A DNA stretch of 15,704 nucleotides from a virus (taxonomy: Duplodnaviria > Heunggongvirae > Uroviricota > Caudoviricetes). Shown here piece after piece: positions 2,181-12,992 of this stretch; the stretch's first letter is position 1, and every line of letters starts with the position of its first letter. Position numbers and translations under genes: made by a program. Location: IMG/VR virus record IMGVR_UViG_2703718817_000007; one strand, given 5' to 3'. The notes below the pieces were generated by a model that did not search any database, was not told where the DNA came from, and saw only the letters and a list, made by a program, of their open reading frames with translations.

Positions 2181-3263
2181 ATGAAAAAATTAACAGTGGC
2201 AATTTCTGCTGTAGCTGCATCAGTACTGATGGCGATGTCTGCTCAGGCAGCTGAAATTTATAATAAAGACAGTAACAAGCTGGATCTATACGGGAAAGTT
2301 AATGCCAAGCACTACTTCTCCTCTAATGATGCAGATGATGGTGATACTACTTATGCCCGTCTTGGCTTCAAAGGTGAAACCCAAATCAACGATCAACTGA
2401 CTGGTTTCGGTCAGTGGGAATATGAATTCAAAGGCAACCGTGCTGAATCTCAAGGTTCTTCCAAAGACAAAACCCGTCTTGCATTTGCAGGCCTGAAATT
2501 TGGTGATTACGGCTCAATCGATTACGGCCGTAACTACGGTGTAGCATACGACATCGGTGCGTGGACTGACGTCCTGCCAGAATTCGGTGGTGATACCTGG
2601 ACCCAAACAGATGTGTTCATGACTGGTCGCACTACTGGTGTTGCAACTTATCGTAACAACGACTTCTTTGGTCTGGTCGATGGCCTGAACTTTGCTGCTC
2701 AGTATCAGGGTAAAAATGACCGCACTGACGTAACTGAAGCCAATGGTGATGGTTTCGGTTTCTCCACTACTTATGAGTATGAAGGATTCGGCGTGGGTGC
2801 AACCTATGCTAAATCAGATCGCACTGACGGTCAGGTCGCCTATGGTAAGAGCAAATTCAATGCCTCCGGCAAAAATGCGGAAGTATGGGCTGCAGGCCTG
2901 AAATATGATGCGAACAATATCTATCTGGCTACCACATATTCTGAAACTCAGAATATGACCGTTTTTGGTAATAACCATATTGCAAACAAAGCACAAAACT
3001 TTGAAGCAGTAGCACAATATCAGTTTGACTTCGGTCTGCGTCCATCTGTTGCTTACCTTCAGTCAAAAGGTAAAGACCTTGGTGTTCATGGTGACCGAGA
3101 CTTAGTCAAGTATGTCGATGTCGGTGCTACTTACTACTTTAATAAAAACATGTCCACTTTTGTTGATTACAAAATCAACTTAATTGACGATAGTAAGTTT
3201 ACCAAAACAGCTGGTATTGATACCGACGACATCGTCGCTGTAGGTCTGGTTTATCAGTTCTAA
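2181..3263 (+). CDS. nmpC: Outer-membrane general porin of the OmpC/OmpF family (NmpC / phage PA-2 Lc-like), intact, 360 aa
   Basis: ORF track 2181..3263. Signal peptide [23 protein letters not shown]|AEIYNK; porin hallmarks ([15 protein letters not shown].., Gly/Tyr-rich beta strands, C-terminal ..VAVGLVYQF). Sits between Q and the lysis genes in the opposite orientation, as nmpC does in DLP12. Preceded by a roughly 400-bp AT-rich region (1780-2180). Confidence 0.9.
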
Positions 3264-3451: not shown

Positions 3452-3835
3452 TCAATTAGAATTATTAGCAACGATATCCATATCTAACCGGATATCTAAT
3501 GCCATTAACATCCCTTCAATTATGCCCTCAGCCTTCTGTAACCTTTTCCCGATATAACCATCCGAGCAGCAATGCTTACTTGCCAGTGACATGAATGTCA
3601 TACCACATACATAATAATCTACTAATAAATCGTGTAAATCGCTGTTGTTCTTTTTCAGACGGGCCATGCACCCGCAAATGATCATCGCGTCATCGTCACA
3701 ACATTGCGGGCGAGATTTTACTTTTGAAGGAATTAATCCCTTAAAACCGGCGGCAATGGACGACCAGGTCACATCTTCATGATTATTAGCCGCCCACGCT
3801 CCCCAACGTTCAAGAACCATCTGAATATCACGCAT
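3452..3835 (-). CDS. Q: Late-gene antiterminator Q (phage 82 / DLP12 QuuD family), 127 aa
   Basis: ORF track 3452..3850 is the TTG-extended form; ATG at 3833-3835 follows GGAG. Product starts [24 protein letters not shown].. with Cys-rich zinc-binding core ([17 protein letters not shown]); length equals QuuD as recalled. Confidence 0.85.
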
Positions 3836-3852
3836 TAACTTTCTCCACAAAA

Positions 3853-5827: not shown

Positions 5828-6223
5828 TTACCGAGTTGCTAATTTGCAACTCGCTTTTTCGTACTTACTGATAGTGATCTCGACCTTCCCCTCCGGGATA
5901 ACCGGTCCCCACTCCACCAGCATTCTTTTCACCTGACTGTCGTCTTCCCACACACCCGCGTGGGTCAGGGCGTCAAACAGCGCCTTGTTATAGTTGTCCA
6001 GATCGCGGATCCGGTTATCCGGAGGAAACAACACGATCTCCACTGAAGCAGGTGCCGACGTTGGTTTCGGCAGACGACGTAACTGCTCAACTATTGCTGC
6101 ACACGCCGCGCTCTGGAATTTTCGCCCCGCCGCGCTTATCAGGCTCTTACCAGCAAACGCCCCTTTGTTGGGGTGTCGCCAGTACGTGTTCACGCTGGGC
6201 GGAAAAGGTAGGATCAGCTTCAT
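5828..6223 (-). CDS. rusA: RusA-family Holliday junction resolvase, 131 aa
   Basis: ORF track 5828..6223. MKLILPFPPSVNTYWRH.. with the RusA acidic catalytic region (..DNRIRDLDNYNKALFDALTHAGVWEDDSQV). ATG overlaps the upstream gene stop (ATGA). Confidence 0.85.
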   Translation of the reverse strand: MKLILPFPPSVNTYWRHPNKGAFAGKSLISAAGRKFQSAACAAIVEQLRRLPKPTSAPASVEIVLFPPDNRIRDLDNYNKALFDALTHAGVWEDDSQVKRMLVEWGPVIPEGKVEITISKYEKASCKLATR

Positions 6224-6546
6224 ACTTTCAGGCCCCTCTCATGTAACCAGTGGGCTGCACGCAGCCTGGCGTTTTCCTCACCGGCAAGCAGTGAGCGGAT
6301 AATCCCGACCGCCTCGCTGTCGTCGTCCTTCACCACGGTATGAAGCGTGATCCCCCGGGCCACACCACGCTTTATCGTGATGACGCCTTTTTTCTCCAGT
6401 GCGCGAAGATGCTCCACCGCTGCATTCACTGAACGGTATCCCAGCATGGTTGCCACCTCCTGATTGGTTGGCGGGAAGCCACGTTCTTTCTGATAAGAAA
6501 TCAGCATATCCAGCACCTGCTGCTGGCATTGAGTTAACGTCGTCAT
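6220..6546 (-). CDS. Small protein consisting of a LexA-type N-terminal winged-helix DNA-binding domain only, no S24 peptidase domain, 108 aa
   Basis: ORF track 6220..6546. LTQCQQQVLDMLISYQKERGFPPTNQEVATMLGYRSVNAAVEHLRALEKKGVITIKRGVARGITL parallels the E. coli LexA N-terminus ([55 protein letters not shown]) as recalled. Only about 35 aa follow. ATGA overlaps at both ends. Confidence 0.7.
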   Translation of the reverse strand: MTTLTQCQQQVLDMLISYQKERGFPPTNQEVATMLGYRSVNAAVEHLRALEKKGVITIKRGVARGITLHTVVKDDDSEAVGIIRSLLAGEENARLRAAHWLHERGLKV

Positions 6547-8976: not shown

Positions 8977-9542
8977 GCGTTAGTTTCTCCACAACCAGAA
9001 GCAATCGACGCCACGACGCCCGGAGCTGCACACTCGCGGGCGTCATTACTTTCTGAAATGCAAAAAATTTTGTAGACAAGTGCTGCATGCTCCTGCAGCT
9101 TCGAAATTGAGAGATACAGCTCGTCGTTAATTGCTGTCTTCTCATGCGGTTCCACTACACCGTCTTCGATTGCTGAACGAATCTGTTTTGAATAACTGCC
9201 GATCTGTTCAATGACTTCCAGCAGACGCTGGTTAATATCGGCGTTGTCCACATCCTCGACGTCAGGAAGAGACACAAAGACGCCATTTGCAGACTGCGCC
9301 ACAGCATCAGCAATGAAATGAGTGCCACCAGCACGCTGTAAAACCATTGCCCATCCCAGCGGGAAAATCTGATCGCCATCTGCACGAAGGCGGTTGAATA
9401 AAGCGTTTTCTGTTACATCGAGCCAGTCAGCCGCTTCAGCGTAACCACCCGGCAACGCCGCGATAGTTTTTCTGACAGCTTTCACGTACCACTCAGGCTG
9501 TTTTTCTATTTTCCAGTGATGCTTACCCACGATTAGCCTCAT
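8973..9542 (-). CDS. cII-position regulatory protein (HTH-containing; resembles the phage CII / CP76-type family by architecture), 189 aa
   Basis: ORF track 8973..9542. Directly downstream of cro; HTH-like segment [21 protein letters not shown]. Family assignment is from recollection of 186-CII-like proteins and is uncertain. Confidence 0.45.
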
Positions 9543-9573
9543 CGTTCTGTGGTTAAAAATTGAAAGTGTTCTG

Positions 9574-9774
9574 CTAATCTTTCGGATAGATATCCGGTCT
9601 TAAGTCAGATTTCGTAATTGCACCTGACGTGCATTGCTCAAGTTTTTTAGCCAGCACAAAACTGGCTTTTTTATAGCCATTGAAAACCAGCCGTAAGTAG
9701 CCAGGTGTTGAGCCAACTTTTCCGGCCAACTCGCCCTGCTGTTCTTTGGTTAAAGAGTCCCAATACGCTTTCAT
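9574..9774 (-). CDS. cro: Cro-like HTH repressor (YdaS/Cro-type), 66 aa
   Basis: Internal ATG at 9772-9774 of the long ORF 9574..10077, preceded by GGAGGT; product MKAYWDSLTKEQQGELAGKVGSTPGYLRLVFNGYKKASFVLAKKLEQCTSGAITKSDLRPDIYPKD. The upstream 300 nt of the long ORF is antisense to cI and is rejected. Divergent from cI across the operator region. Confidence 0.7.
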   Translation of the reverse strand: MKAYWDSLTKEQQGELAGKVGSTPGYLRLVFNGYKKASFVLAKKLEQCTSGAITKSDLRPDIYPKD

Positions 9775-9777
9775 ACA

Positions 9778-9864
9778 ATATGTACCTCCGGTATACATAT
9801 TACATGATTGAAATGAACCTTCAAGATACTTGTACCTTAACGGTACAAGGGTTTTAATTTCGTT
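9778..9864. promoter_or_regulatory. Immunity-switch operator/promoter region (OR): palindromic operators with divergent pR-like and pRM-like promoters
   Basis: Perfect palindrome CTTGTACC-N5-GGTACAAG at 9829-9849; imperfect ATATGTACC-tcc-GGTATACATAT at 9778-9800. Minus-strand promoter TTGAAG (9819-9824) -16- TAATAT (9797-9802) feeds cro. On the plus strand a TTTAAT-like -10 at 9852-9858 sits about 7 nt before the cI ATG, suggesting a leaderless cI mRNA. Confidence 0.6.
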
Positions 9865-10539
9865 ATGAAAACAATCCATGACATCCGGCGGTCTAACGCC
9901 AGAAAACTGAGAGATGGTGTTGGCGGGAATTCTTCCTTTGCCACTATGATTGATCGCGAGCCAACCCAGACCAGCAGGTTTATGGGAGATGGTGCTACTA
10001 AAAATATCGGTGACAGCATGGCACGACACATCGAAAAATGTTTCGACCTGCCTGTCGGATGGCTCGATCAAGAACACCAGACAACGAACATCACAAAAAA
10101 ACCTGATGTTTCAATCACTAATAAACAAATCACATTAGTCCCTGTCATATCATGGGTACAGGCCGGAGCATGGAAAGAAGTTGGATATTCTGAGGTTGAT
10201 TTGAGCACAGCAGAAACGTATCCCTGCCCTGTACCCTGTGGGGAAATGACTTATATCTTGCGGGTGATAGGTGATTCAATGATTGATGAGTACCGCCCGG
10301 GAGACATGATTTTTGTCGATCCTGAAGTACCTGCCTGCCACGGTGACGACGTTATTGCATTGATGCACGATACAGGTGAAACCACCTTCAAAAGGTTGAT
10401 AGAAGATGGGACACAGCGTTATCTCAAAGCGTTAAACCCAAACTGGCCTGAGCCTTACATTAAGATCAACGGTAATTGCTCTATAATTGGAACTGTGATT
10501 TTCTCAGGAAAACCAAGAAGATACAAAATCAAAGCCTAA
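9865..10539 (+). CDS. cI: CI-type prophage repressor (N-terminal HTH plus C-terminal LexA-like S24 peptidase domain), 224 aa
   Basis: ORF track 9865..10539, ATG start. C-terminal domain has GDSM (Ser nucleophile), ..TFKRLI.. (Lys) and VQAG linker motifs as in lambda cI/LexA. Confidence 0.85.
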   Translation: MKTIHDIRRSNARKLRDGVGGNSSFATMIDREPTQTSRFMGDGATKNIGDSMARHIEKCFDLPVGWLDQEHQTTNITKKPDVSITNKQITLVPVISWVQAGAWKEVGYSEVDLSTAETYPCPVPCGEMTYILRVIGDSMIDEYRPGDMIFVDPEVPACHGDDVIALMHDTGETTFKRLIEDGTQRYLKALNPNWPEPYIKINGNCSIIGTVIFSGKPRRYKIKA

Positions 10540-10551
10540 TCAATGTTTATG

Positions 10552-10576
10552 AACCTGCTTCGGCAGGTTTTTTTAT
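10552..10576 (+). terminator. Intrinsic terminator after cI
   Basis: Stem aacctgc (10552-10558) / gcaggtt (10563-10569), loop ttcg, followed by tttttat (10570-10576); 13 nt after the cI stop. Confidence 0.7.
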
Positions 10577-10578
10577 AC

Positions 10579-10610
10579 TTGACAATGTACCTTTGGGATA
10601 CATAATGTAC
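10579..10610 (+). promoter_or_regulatory. Strong sigma70-like promoter with embedded operator half-sites; candidate pL/OL
   Basis: TTGACA (10579-10584) -16 nt- CATAAT (10601-10606). ATGTACC at 10585-10591 and 10604-10610 with GGATACAT between them resemble the OR half-sites (TTGTACC/ATGTACC). Confidence 0.5.
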
Positions 10611-10690
10611 CCAAGAGAAACAACAAACAGGCAGGACGCCCACGAAGTAGCCGCCTGGAGCATATGAAGTCTAGGATGATTCATTAGCAA

Positions 10691-10718
10691 CAAAAAAGCG
10701 CCCTACAGGACGCTTAGC
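10691..10718 (-). terminator. Intrinsic terminator for the minus-strand moron gene
   Basis: On the minus strand: aagcgucc / gggcgcuu stem (one G-U pair), loop ugua, followed by uuuuguug. The plus strand has an A-run before it, so it should not stop plus-strand transcription. Confidence 0.5.
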
Positions 10719-10728
10719 TCTTTAACAA
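10717..10728 (+). promoter_or_regulatory. boxA-like element (exact match to the rrn boxA core GCTCTTTAACAA), about 105 nt downstream of the pL-like promoter
   Basis: gctctttaacaa at 10717-10728 on the plus strand; followed by a 6-bp hairpin gcaatc-taca-gattgc at 10749-10764 (boxB-like position). May alternatively be part of the cassette boundary repeat. Confidence 0.4.
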
Positions 10729-10747
10729 TCTGGATATCCACAACAGT
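10726..10747. repeat. Left arm of an inverted repeat bracketing the moron gene
   Basis: caatctggatatccacaacagt; core aatctggatatcc is the exact reverse complement of 11294-11306 (ggatatccagatt), with extended similarity (..caaca..) beyond the core. Confidence 0.6.
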
Positions 10748-10753
10748 AGCAAT

Positions 10754-11245
10754 CTACAGATTGCCGTTAAGTTTTCTGGACAACTCCTCAATGGATGGAG
10801 GCGATACGTAATCCGGATTTTTATTCATCAGAAACTTATTTTCACAGTGGAGGCACCTGCTTTTATGAAAAAGCTCATCTTCGCTAACCGGGAATGGTTG
10901 AAGTATCGATACTATCTTTTGTCCAAAACATTTTGGGCAAAGATGCATGGTTATGCTGCCACCGTTCACGATTACCTCCTTCGAGTATACAAAAGTACCC
11001 GACTCAAGTTGGTTAAGGATATAGCCTTCCGTCTGAGCCTCAAAGTTTTCGAATTCTGCAATTTTAGCTTTGAGAGAAGCATTTATTTCTTGATAAGAGC
11101 CCACCAGTTCAACGAGAGACACGCATTCGCGCTGAATAGACGCAAGCTTTGAGTTCAGCTCACCAATAGCCGCATTTACTTCAGCTTGAGTTTTTGCCTC
11201 GTTCATTAGTTTTGCAATCTGGGCTGTTTCACGAATAGCCGTCAT
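10754..11245 (-). CDS. AT-rich moron gene: hypothetical protein with N-terminal coiled-coil-like region and C-terminal CxxC..CxxC zinc-ribbon, about 163 aa
   Basis: ORF track gives 10754..11533, but the first 96 codons are Arg/Pro-rich GC-rich sequence that overlaps the repeats and is unlikely to be coding; the ATG at 11243-11245 begins MTAIRETAQIAKLMNEAKTQAEVNAAIGELNSKLASIQ.. and ends ..HLCPKCFGQK..(24 aa)..CLHCENKF.. The ATG has no clear SD, so the start is uncertain. Base composition is clearly more AT-rich than flanking phage DNA. Confidence 0.5.
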   Translation of the reverse strand: MTAIRETAQIAKLMNEAKTQAEVNAAIGELNSKLASIQRECVSLVELVGSYQEINASLKAKIAEFENFEAQTEGYILNQLESGTFVYSKEVIVNGGSITMHLCPKCFGQKIVSILQPFPVSEDELFHKSRCLHCENKFLMNKNPDYVSPPSIEELSRKLNGNL

Positions 11246-11283
11246 TGCTGCCGTTAATTCAGCGATCACATTGAATACTCTTA

Positions 11284-11329
11284 TTGTTGTTGGGGATATC
11301 CAGATTAACCGAATCCTTGTTGTTGGGGA
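11284..11329. repeat. Right arm of the moron-bracketing inverted repeat plus a 13-bp direct repeat
   Basis: ttgttgttgggga occurs at 11284-11296 and again at 11317-11329; the first copy runs into ggatatccagatt (11294-11306), the reverse complement of 10727-10739. Confidence 0.6.
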
Positions 11330-11557
11330 ATAACCAGGTCCACCTCGCCTGATGTGGCTAAAAGCAGGCACATAACAGCTAAGTATTTTCAACCAGAGAG
11401 AATCCTTAGCGTTGTGGTGAATGCGGCTCAGCGCACGCGGGTTAAGGTTGAGGCTGACAGTCGACCTTCTGTGGATACCCACCCGCCTGGTGTGCAACCT
11501 TCGCCAGGCACCGGGAGGCACCCGGCACCACAACTTTATGCTGTGTGTAGTCCTGGC

Positions 11558-11592
11558 GGTACCAGTTTGTACCCTTGCTTCCGGCTGGTACC
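11558..11592. promoter_or_regulatory. Operator-like GGTACC palindromes upstream of the early-left operon
   Basis: GGTACCAGTTTGTACC at 11558-11573 (contains TTGTACC, the OR half-site) and GGTACC at 11587-11592. Confidence 0.35.
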
Positions 11593-11603
11593 GTCCTTTT
11601 TTG

Positions 11604-11690
11604 CAAAACAGAGAAGAGCATCACCGGACGACGGGCTCATAACCCAATCCATCCGGGCGGCTGCCACCGCAGGTGTTCTTCTCTGTTTTG
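11604..11690 (+). other. Large structured element: 14-bp perfect inverted repeat plus 4-bp extension enclosing a GC-rich loop of about 60 nt, 50 nt upstream of the yfdP-like start
   Basis: caaaacagagaaga (11604-11617) pairs with tcttctctgttttg (11677-11690); cacc (11622-11625) pairs with ggtg (11672-11675). Preceded by a T-run (11595-11602) but not followed by one on either strand, so it is not a canonical terminator. A second small hairpin gacc-ttgcag-ggtc lies at 11704-11717. Confidence 0.5.
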
Positions 11691-11739
11691 TGGAGAAACC
11701 AACCGACCTTGCAGGGTCGATATGATGAGGAGCAGCAAA

Positions 11740-12102
11740 ATGGCTAGCGAACGCAGTACTGATGTGCAGGCATTTATCGGGGAGCTGGACGGCGGCGTAT
11801 TTGAAACCAAAATCGGCGCAGTTCTCAGTGAGGTCGCTTCCGGTGTGATGAACACGAAAACCAAAGGGAAGGTCTCACTCAATCTGGAAATCGAACCGTT
11901 TGATGAGAACCGTGTGAAAATCAAACACAAACTCTCATATGTTCGCCCAACTAACCGCGGGAAAATTTCCGAAGAAGACACCACCGAAACGCCGATGTAT
12001 GTCAATCGCGGTGGTCGGCTGACTATTCTGCAGGAAGACCAGGGACAATTACTGACTCTTGCCGGTGAACCTGACGGAAAACTCCGCGCAGCAGGTCGTT
12101 AA
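11740..12102 (+). CDS. yfdP: YfdP-like hypothetical protein (first gene of the early-left operon), 120 aa
   Basis: ORF track 11575..12102 is the TTG-extended form; ATG at 11740 follows GAGGAG. Length and position (before a 274-aa gene) match CPS-53 yfdP as recalled. Confidence 0.55.
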   Translation: MASERSTDVQAFIGELDGGVFETKIGAVLSEVASGVMNTKTKGKVSLNLEIEPFDENRVKIKHKLSYVRPTNRGKISEEDTTETPMYVNRGGRLTILQEDQGQLLTLAGEPDGKLRAAGR

Positions 12103-12167
12103 TATCGTTCGTAATAAACTGATTATTTATCTCATCACTGAATATCTTTATATAGTGAGGACTTATT

Positions 12168-12992
12168 ATGTCTCAGAACTTAGACGCAACCGCAATTAAT
12201 CAAATCCATGCCCTTATTTCTGCTCAGGGTGTTAATGAAATTATCAGTAAGATTGGTGCCGATGCTGTGGCATTGCCTGAGAATTTCCGCATTCATGATC
12301 TGGAAAAATTTAATTTAAATCGCTTCCGTTTCCGTGGTGCACTTTCCACTGCCAGCATCGATGATTTTACCCGTTATTCTAAAGATCTTGCAGATGAAGG
12401 CACCCGCTGCTTTATCGATGCCGATAATATGCGTGCCGTCAGTGTGCTTAACCTGGGTACTATTGATGAGCCAGGTCACGCAGATAACACTGCCACTCTC
12501 AAACTGAAAAAGACAGCACCGTTCTCTGCTCTGTTGTCTGTTAACGGCGAGCGTAACTCCCAGAAGTCACTTGCAGAATGGATCGAAGACTGGGCCGACT
12601 ACCTTGTGGGCTTTGATGCTAATGGTGACGCTATTCAGGCAACAAAAGCGGCTGCGGCAGTCCGTAAAATCACGATTGAAGCAAACCAGACCGCTGATTT
12701 TGAAGATAATGACTTCAGCGGCAAACGCTCCCTGATGGAGTCTGTCGAAGCGAAGACCAAAGACATTATGCCAGTGGCATTTGAATTTAAATGCGTTCCG
12801 TTTGAAGGTCTGAAAGAACGTCCGTTTAAATTACGCCTCAGCATTATCACTGGCGATCGTCCTGTACTGGTTCTGCGCATTATTCAGCTGGAAGCGGTGC
12901 AGGAAGAAATGGCTAACGAATTTCGTGATCTGCTTGTTGAGAAATTCAAAGACAGCAAAGTAGAAACCTTTATTGGTACTTTCACCGCCTGA
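12168..12992 (+). CDS. yfdQ: YfdQ-like protein (DUF2303-type by recollection), 274 aa
   Basis: ORF track 12168..12992, ATG with GAGGA SD. Length identical to K-12 YfdQ; gene order matches CPS-53. Confidence 0.6.

Follow-up and report, generated by a model that had tools for sequence, protein, structure and literature searches.

The region described here is the early-left leader that follows the cI repressor gene in a 15,704-nucleotide (nt) stretch of virus DNA (Caudoviricetes; IMG/VR record IMGVR_UViG_2703718817_000007), hereafter the window, and the elements in question are a boxA, a candidate site for the host factors NusB/NusE, and a pair of complementary repeats that bracket an antisense gene. 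The window matches Escherichia phage PhiR49_1 (from ECOR13) at 100% identity, a phage whose structural genes are lambda-like and whose early region resembles those of SfV and SfIV. On the plus strand, cI (9865 to 10539) is followed by its intrinsic terminator (10551 to 10570; found by terminator scan, annotated in SfV, and kept in SfV, SfIV, and Ayreon), a promoter, about 1.1 kb without a plus-strand gene, a YfdP homologue (11740 to 12102), YfdQ, and further genes up to int. The gene that occupies the opposite strand of the leader, a moron at 10754 to 11272, encodes a 172-amino-acid protein (phrog_1244) with a coiled coil and a zinc ribbon and has a probable GTG start. Pfam scans of the open reading frames (ORFs) of the window identified Q, a CII-like protein, Cro, and an S24 repressor, and neither these scans nor the annotation of the phage record contain an N gene. 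The region is the early-left control region of an N-less lambdoid Escherichia coli phage.

The promoter, pL (10579 to 10606, plus strand), is made up of TTGACA (10579 to 10584), a 16-nt spacer, and CATAAT (10601 to 10606). It matches 11 of 12 consensus positions and is the best promoter-like site across 9400 to 12300 in a consensus scan; promoter-like sites as a class are not enriched in that interval (3 seen versus 4.5 expected). The site is kept in SfV, SfIV, and Ayreon, with a promoter annotated there in the Ayreon record, and the equivalent position behind many other immunity types also holds a strong promoter-like site. Its spacer is filled by a 19-bp operator, OL (ATGTACC-N5-GATACAT, 10585 to 10603), which resembles the sites between cro and cI. 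The first of two ATGTACC half-sites, at 10585, is half of this operator; the extra one lies at 10605 to 10611. When TGTACCN5GGTACA was searched with up to two mismatches, five matches were found against 0.28 expected, a number reached in 0 of 200 shuffles, and two of the five fall between cro and cI (9781 to 9797 and 9831 to 9847). In a related locus (L034), the operator position is occupied by a perfect palindrome. A repressor-controlled sigma-70 early promoter is expected to have -35 and -10 elements of consensus type that share their DNA with an operator like those at OR, as is the case here. An earlier sequence-only reading of this DNA had placed a promoter directly after the cI terminator, overlapping ATGTACC half-sites and probably under repressor control, with the nearest plus-strand gene more than 1 kb away. 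All of this holds up: the operator matches support repressor control, and the YfdP homologue, the first translated gene of the predicted pL operon, starts 1134 nt past the -10 element. Binding of cI at the operator would be expected to shut off this putative promoter.

About 104 nt into the predicted transcript lies the boxA GCTCTTTAACAA (10717 to 10728, plus strand), a 12/12 match. The conserved promoter with its operator sits 111 nt upstream on the same strand. An exact boxA is expected 0.01 times per window, and 3 of 200 shuffles contain one. Its first 11 bases, GCTCTTTAACA (10717 to 10727), fit the functional consensus GYTCTTTAANA derived by Baniulyte et al. (PMC5725501) and are the sole match to it in the entire 45-kb phage genome. 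A boxA-like 12-mer with two mismatches, ACTCTTTAACCA, occurs on the minus strand at the start of cro (9747 to 9758); it is at chance level (1.63 expected) and off the functional consensus.

To guard against circularity, boxA was counted only in 54 loci that had been retrieved solely through the right-hand repeat. It is present in 44 of them, 460 to 850 nt upstream, and 42 of the 44 fit GYTCTTTAANA, the differences being confined to degenerate positions. What varies around it are the base or bases just before it, the loop of the preceding hairpin, and the cassette. The sequence-only reading had recorded an exact boxA about 105 nt downstream of the promoter; it is indeed there, and from its pattern of conservation it looks to be under selection as a boxA.

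When SfV, SfIV, Ayreon, and a Klebsiella phage are compared, the DNA between the leader and about 11340 proves to be a cassette that can be replaced. The cassette of SfIV is another one and also holds a small plus-strand ORF; the Klebsiella phage differs in its repressor, and its version of the moron is only 72% identical. The left border common to these two phages comprises an A-run, a hairpin, boxA, and AATCTGG. Scans of IMG/VR yielded over 280 loci, and the cassettes within these shared borders, 460 to 850 nt long, are of at least 20 types; the hot spot proper (10729 to 11283; loci L004 to L194) takes unrelated inserts, mostly of one minus-strand gene each. Each of the 45 distinct loci with a boxA has an antisense ORF as the longest one within the following 800 nt, versus 35% of 77 loci that share the 5' leader but lack boxA, many of which start a plus-strand gene at once. 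For the moron itself there is no PADLOC hit, PHROGs returns nothing but families without a known function, the sole Pfam match is a weak one to a coiled coil, and a consensus scan finds no minus-strand promoter. The cassette proteins belong to phrog_1244, phrog_5286, and phrog_1744, with no known function and no PADLOC hit, and several share a common N-terminus while differing at the C-terminus. Along the antisense stretch, the ratio of C to G shows no more than a slight local rise, with a maximum of 1.44, which is uninformative on Rho loading.

The cassette is flanked by two arms that can form a long-range helix of about 20 bp in the pL transcript. The 5' (leader) arm (10727 to 10749, plus strand) starts within the last two bases of boxA and begins AATCTGGAT, as does the leader arm of 23S ribosomal RNA (rRNA). 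The complementary 3' (trailer) arm, R1 (11284 to 11306, plus strand), lies beyond the antisense cassette and would appear about 550 nt after the 5' arm. Among 40 distinct sequences, 83.3% of cells are paired and 13 of the 20 pairs have changed on both sides, with whole blocks exchanged jointly on the two arms (GTAACCCTC/GAGGGTTAC, GGATGACT/AGTCATCC, CTGAAT/ATTCAG). None of 500 shuffles attains any of five measures, and a register control peaks at the proposed pairing (83% versus 50% or less elsewhere). The mean duplex energy is -26 kcal/mol, and pairing is stronger between the two arms of one locus than between arms taken from different loci (-26.2 versus -22.3). When the full 1133-nt leader is folded, the helix is present in both the minimum-energy and the centroid structures.

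Complementary, covarying arms that flank a long insert, with the 5' arm adjoining boxA, are the hallmarks of an rRNA-type leader-trailer helix. The sequence-only reading had observed that boxA overlaps a repeat at the cassette boundary and had set the two against each other as competing interpretations; the overlap is real, as the repeat arm runs from 10727, but the two are better described as one unit, as they are upstream of 23S rRNA. Cleavage of the plus-strand helix by RNase III is possible. A second direct copy of the arm motif, R2 (11317 to 11338, plus strand), is nearly invariant and is unpaired in the predicted fold; R1 and R2 (11284 to 11338) are direct copies of TTGTTGTTGGGGA-A/T-rich-CCAG, 33 nt apart.

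A scan of species genomes ties this unit to the ribosomal operons. The pattern GCTCTTTAA[AC]AATCTGG mostly finds the second rrn boxA, in the 16S-23S spacer. In E. coli this spacer boxA lies 110 nt before the 5' end of 23S, and the sequence that immediately follows, AATCTGGATCAAGCTGAAAAT, pairs with a stretch of the 23S trailer located 3009 nt downstream (-25.2 kcal/mol), forming the base of the leader-trailer helix. The phage 19-mer GCTCTTTAACAATCTGGAT, which spans boxA and the first bases of that helix, is identical to E. coli GCTCTTTAAAAATCTGGAT at 18 of 19 positions, and phage variants with A at position 10 are identical at 19 of 19. The 3' arms of the phage and 23S helices share the ending CAGATTAA.

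Action of Nus factors at boxA without N is established for rRNA, suhB, and clustered regularly interspaced short palindromic repeat (CRISPR) arrays. In rrn operons, boxA is both required and sufficient for the antitermination complex to form, and it has been proposed that the 5' arm stays bound at the RNA exit during looping out of the insert (PMC10250234); long untranslated CRISPR transcripts are shielded from Rho by boxA (PMC7665894). We propose, with a probability of roughly 0.55, that the pL leader combines an rrn-type, N-independent Nus loading site with a leader-trailer helix, and that it thereby crosses and loops out the antisense cassette. After derepression, the pL transcript would begin near 10613, form a three-stem RNA (10620 to 10692), and cross the terminator hairpin of the moron backwards. 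At about +104 the rrn-type boxA would be exposed, and polymerase would become Rho-resistant over 1.1 kb of untranslated cassette-antisense RNA. As proposed for the 23S helix, the 5' arm would be retained by the Nus complex at the RNA exit until R1 emerges, so that the antisense RNA is looped out and perhaps cut away by RNase III, while transcription carries on into an STnc100-like RNA (11381 to 11604) and the yfdP-to-int operon. Because the interior of the loop is free to vary, the site could act as a slot for exchangeable cassettes. What the sequences establish directly are the elements, how they are conserved and covary, and their match to the rrn spacer; activity of the promoter, binding of Nus factors, resistance to Rho, and cutting by RNase III are inferred. 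The sequence-only reading had likewise envisaged a transcript running antisense through the moron and its terminator; the long antisense transcript fits our proposal, but the terminator lies upstream of boxA rather than downstream.

Several observations weigh against this proposal. SfV and Ayreon do without boxA. An empty site, with boxA and the 5' arm but the partner arm within 34 nt, was not found in IMG/VR, the smallest insert seen being about 460 nt. Complexes of the rrn type are known to act against Rho, but their effect on intrinsic terminators is reported to be weak, and the terminator of the STnc100-like RNA (~11600) would then need another device. Transitions compatible with G.U pairing are in excess (51 versus 13), but the bases that make up the 5' arm would by themselves give a ratio of roughly 2.7:1, which is only slightly exceeded. 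The helix favors the plus strand only modestly, with 83.3% of cells paired there versus 78.4% on the minus strand. The hairpin 1 nt 5' of boxA (10696 to 10715) is the intrinsic terminator of the moron, followed on the minus strand by a T-run (10692 to 10697), and is clearly optimized for that strand, where it has a U.G pair in place of the C.A mismatch of the plus strand; its stem is kept while its loop varies, with a UUCG loop in the Klebsiella phage. Finally, R1 and R2 always lie 10 to 25 nt upstream of a minus-strand start codon and persist there in loci without boxA and the 5' arm, in none of which a convincing partner arm was found. R1 and R2 must then have an additional role; they might be the promoter or 5' untranslated region (UTR) of the cassette genes, or activator sites.

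The last three of these points can be turned into an alternative in which the conserved block serves the cassette gene: the arms would pair the 5' and 3' UTRs of the moron mRNA for stability or translational control, the hairpin would be a canonical terminator, and boxA would merely be a conserved stretch between arm and terminator. The helix is indeed fairly stable on the minus strand, with a mean of -24.0 kcal/mol. However, it is more stable on the plus strand in 39 of 52 cases. Serving the minus strand also leaves unexplained both the fit of the plus strand to the functional boxA consensus, with variation at degenerate positions only, and the 18- to 19-nt identity to the rrn spacer boxA and helix start. 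In one locus type (L129), moreover, the hairpin before boxA differs and is not a terminator, yet boxA still follows. We regard this alternative as unlikely.

Homologous recombination offers another account of the same borders, in which hairpin, boxA, and arms form a linker kept by the swapping of cassettes and the likeness to rrn is the relic of an old capture with no present role in transcription. The diversity of cassettes within these borders speaks for such a linker, as does the distribution of the hairpin-plus-boxA module, which we find in 1410 of 5426 complete E. coli genomes (about a quarter), mostly with other cassettes. Recombination requires identity and not complementarity, though, and the arms covary in blocks. 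In addition, the bases beside boxA drift, whereas boxA itself keeps to the functional consensus, and it is a 12/12 match in the Klebsiella phage despite the 72% identity of the neighboring gene. A purely recombinational role is quite improbable in our estimation.

Nus factors bound at boxA could also act in the opposite sense. They repress suhB (PMC5725501), and an attenuator of this kind would throttle pL read-through, for example by Rho termination or a translation block. The minimum-energy fold of the whole leader pairs boxA (10717 to 10724) with the purine-rich yfdP ribosome-binding region GAGGAGC (~11722 to 11735), as such a device might; this predicted pairing may be an artefact of pyrimidine content. 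In suhB, boxA is close to the start codon, whereas the first translated gene of the phage is about 1 kb away, and the association with long antisense stretches and a leader-trailer helix is better suited to the role that boxA has in rrn operons and CRISPR arrays. We consider attenuation very unlikely here.

The sequence-only reading had seen a nutL-like layout, which in lambda consists of boxA, boxB, and N. The 6-bp hairpin that it reported after boxA, GCAATC-TACA-GATTGC (10749 to 10764, plus strand), is present; as it is cassette-specific and overlaps the moron stop codon (10754 to 10756), it is not a boxB. The boxB likeness of the hairpin before boxA may in turn be incidental, given that this hairpin is the moron terminator. 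A nutL in which the 10749 to 10764 hairpin is bound by an N-like protein has the order of elements on its side, with a hairpin 20 nt beyond a boxA downstream of pL, but we reject it as extremely improbable, since no N gene is found in the Pfam scans of the window or in the phage annotation, the hairpin is missing from SfIV and most other cassette types that retain boxA, leaving no conserved boxB, and a nutR counterpart is lacking on the pR side, the single consensus boxA of the genome being the one in the pL leader.

The leader contains further elements besides boxA. The three-stem RNA, which occupies the first 70 nt of the predicted pL transcript, is a candidate new cis-acting RNA. An RNAalifold consensus has 13 pairs, 10 of them with compensatory changes. 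Covariation is strong in the closing stem and in the second hairpin, and the loops (CACGAAGUAGCC, GGCAUAUGAAG, GAUGA) hardly vary. A covariance model finds it once in the window, at 81 bits. It lies behind many pL and operator types, including those of SfII, ST64B, mEp237, and Yersinia, Pectobacterium, and Aeromonas phages, and occurs once per phage in hosts of the genera Escherichia, Shigella, Salmonella, Klebsiella, Yersinia, Pectobacterium, and Aeromonas. Rfam holds no family for it. In the phage studied here, G-to-A changes on both strands of the closing stem (10623 to 10627 and 10680 to 10684; AACAAA/TTCATT, where relatives have AACGAA/TTCGTT) break two pairs instead of compensating. Homology to the put sites of HK022 was considered, with putL and putR located by the residue numbering in PMC9378689, and rejected: the covariance model has no match in the HK022 immunity region, and the window holds no second copy of the RNA.

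At gathering score, no Rfam family is found in the window, and permissive thresholds give STnc100 only. This prophage small RNA family (RF02076) matches at 11381 to 11604 on the plus strand over its full length, with 40.3 bits against a gathering score of 47 (E = 5e-7). The STnc100-like RNA ends in an intrinsic terminator, consisting of the terminal stem GGTACCAG/CTGGTACC and a T-run. Relative to the version in the Klebsiella phage, its closing stem shows covariation, and in Ayreon the interior differs between similar ends. A long, near-perfect plus-strand stem at 11603 to 11690 (CAAAACAGAGAAGAGC ... GTTCTTCTCTGTTTTG) has a structured interior, lies right before the yfdP ribosome-binding site, and is kept in SfV, SfIV, and Ayreon.

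Two further genes of the window deserve mention. An OmpD-like porin gene (2181 to 3263, plus strand; named from the phage record) is on the opposite strand to Q (3452 to 3850) and the lysis genes (879 to 1591) and is another backwards-facing moron, located in the late leader. In the pR operon, a 108-amino-acid protein (6220 to 6546, minus strand) has a LexA DNA-binding domain alone, without the S24 peptidase part.

Taken more broadly, these data lead us to a wider suggestion, which we make tentatively and at somewhat less than even odds. Widespread N-less temperate phages of enterobacteria may have copied the design of the 23S precursor, hijacking the antitermination and RNA chaperone complex of the host ribosomal operons; pL transcription would cross a defence or moron cassette and fold it out, perhaps with excision by RNase III, and the loop would be a protected plug-in slot. 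The three-stem RNA could be a second, put-like device directed against intrinsic terminators. No description of an N-independent boxA in a phage leader was found in the literature searched, a search that had most subscription journals outside its coverage. If the suggestion is correct, a phage early operon would be a further, mobile target of N-independent boxA action, and early antitermination in lambdoid phages would have a third solution beside N and put. It would also place leader-trailer looping outside ribosome synthesis, in a small and easily mutated system, and would explain both how genes of opposite orientation can sit inside an early leader without loss of early expression and why a cassette hot spot is found at this location.

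How the phage leader relates to known antitermination systems can now be stated. With lambda nutL it has in common that a boxA is present and that the site closely follows a pL under repressor control; it differs in having no N, conserved boxB, or nutR, and in a boxA that is the full rrn consensus, whereas the lambda form is weaker. What links it to HK022 is that the phage is lambdoid, lacks N, and has a conserved structured RNA with which the pL transcript opens. The put sites, however, serve both pL and pR, whereas the phage RNA is present in single copy, has three stems, and yields a model that misses putL and putR. The CRISPR boxA is similar in being a lone boxA about 100 nt into a long untranslated transcript, in depending on host factors only, and in having Rho as the presumed threat; a flanking long-range helix has not been described there, and the untranslated RNA of the phage is antisense to a gene. 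From the rrn spacer boxA and the 23S leader-trailer helix, the leader differs in that the phage insert is a 0.5- to 0.8-kb antisense protein-coding cassette and not rRNA, only the first 6 to 9 bp of the roughly 20-bp helix are rrn-like, the hairpin touches boxA (it is 12 nt away in E. coli) and doubles as a terminator for the opposite strand, and Nus binding and RNase III cleavage in the phage are predictions. Both systems nevertheless have a hairpin upstream of a consensus boxA, an arm that directly follows boxA with the same bases (AATCTGGAT), a long insert, and a 3' arm that ends CAGATTAA, and neither requires an N of the phage type.

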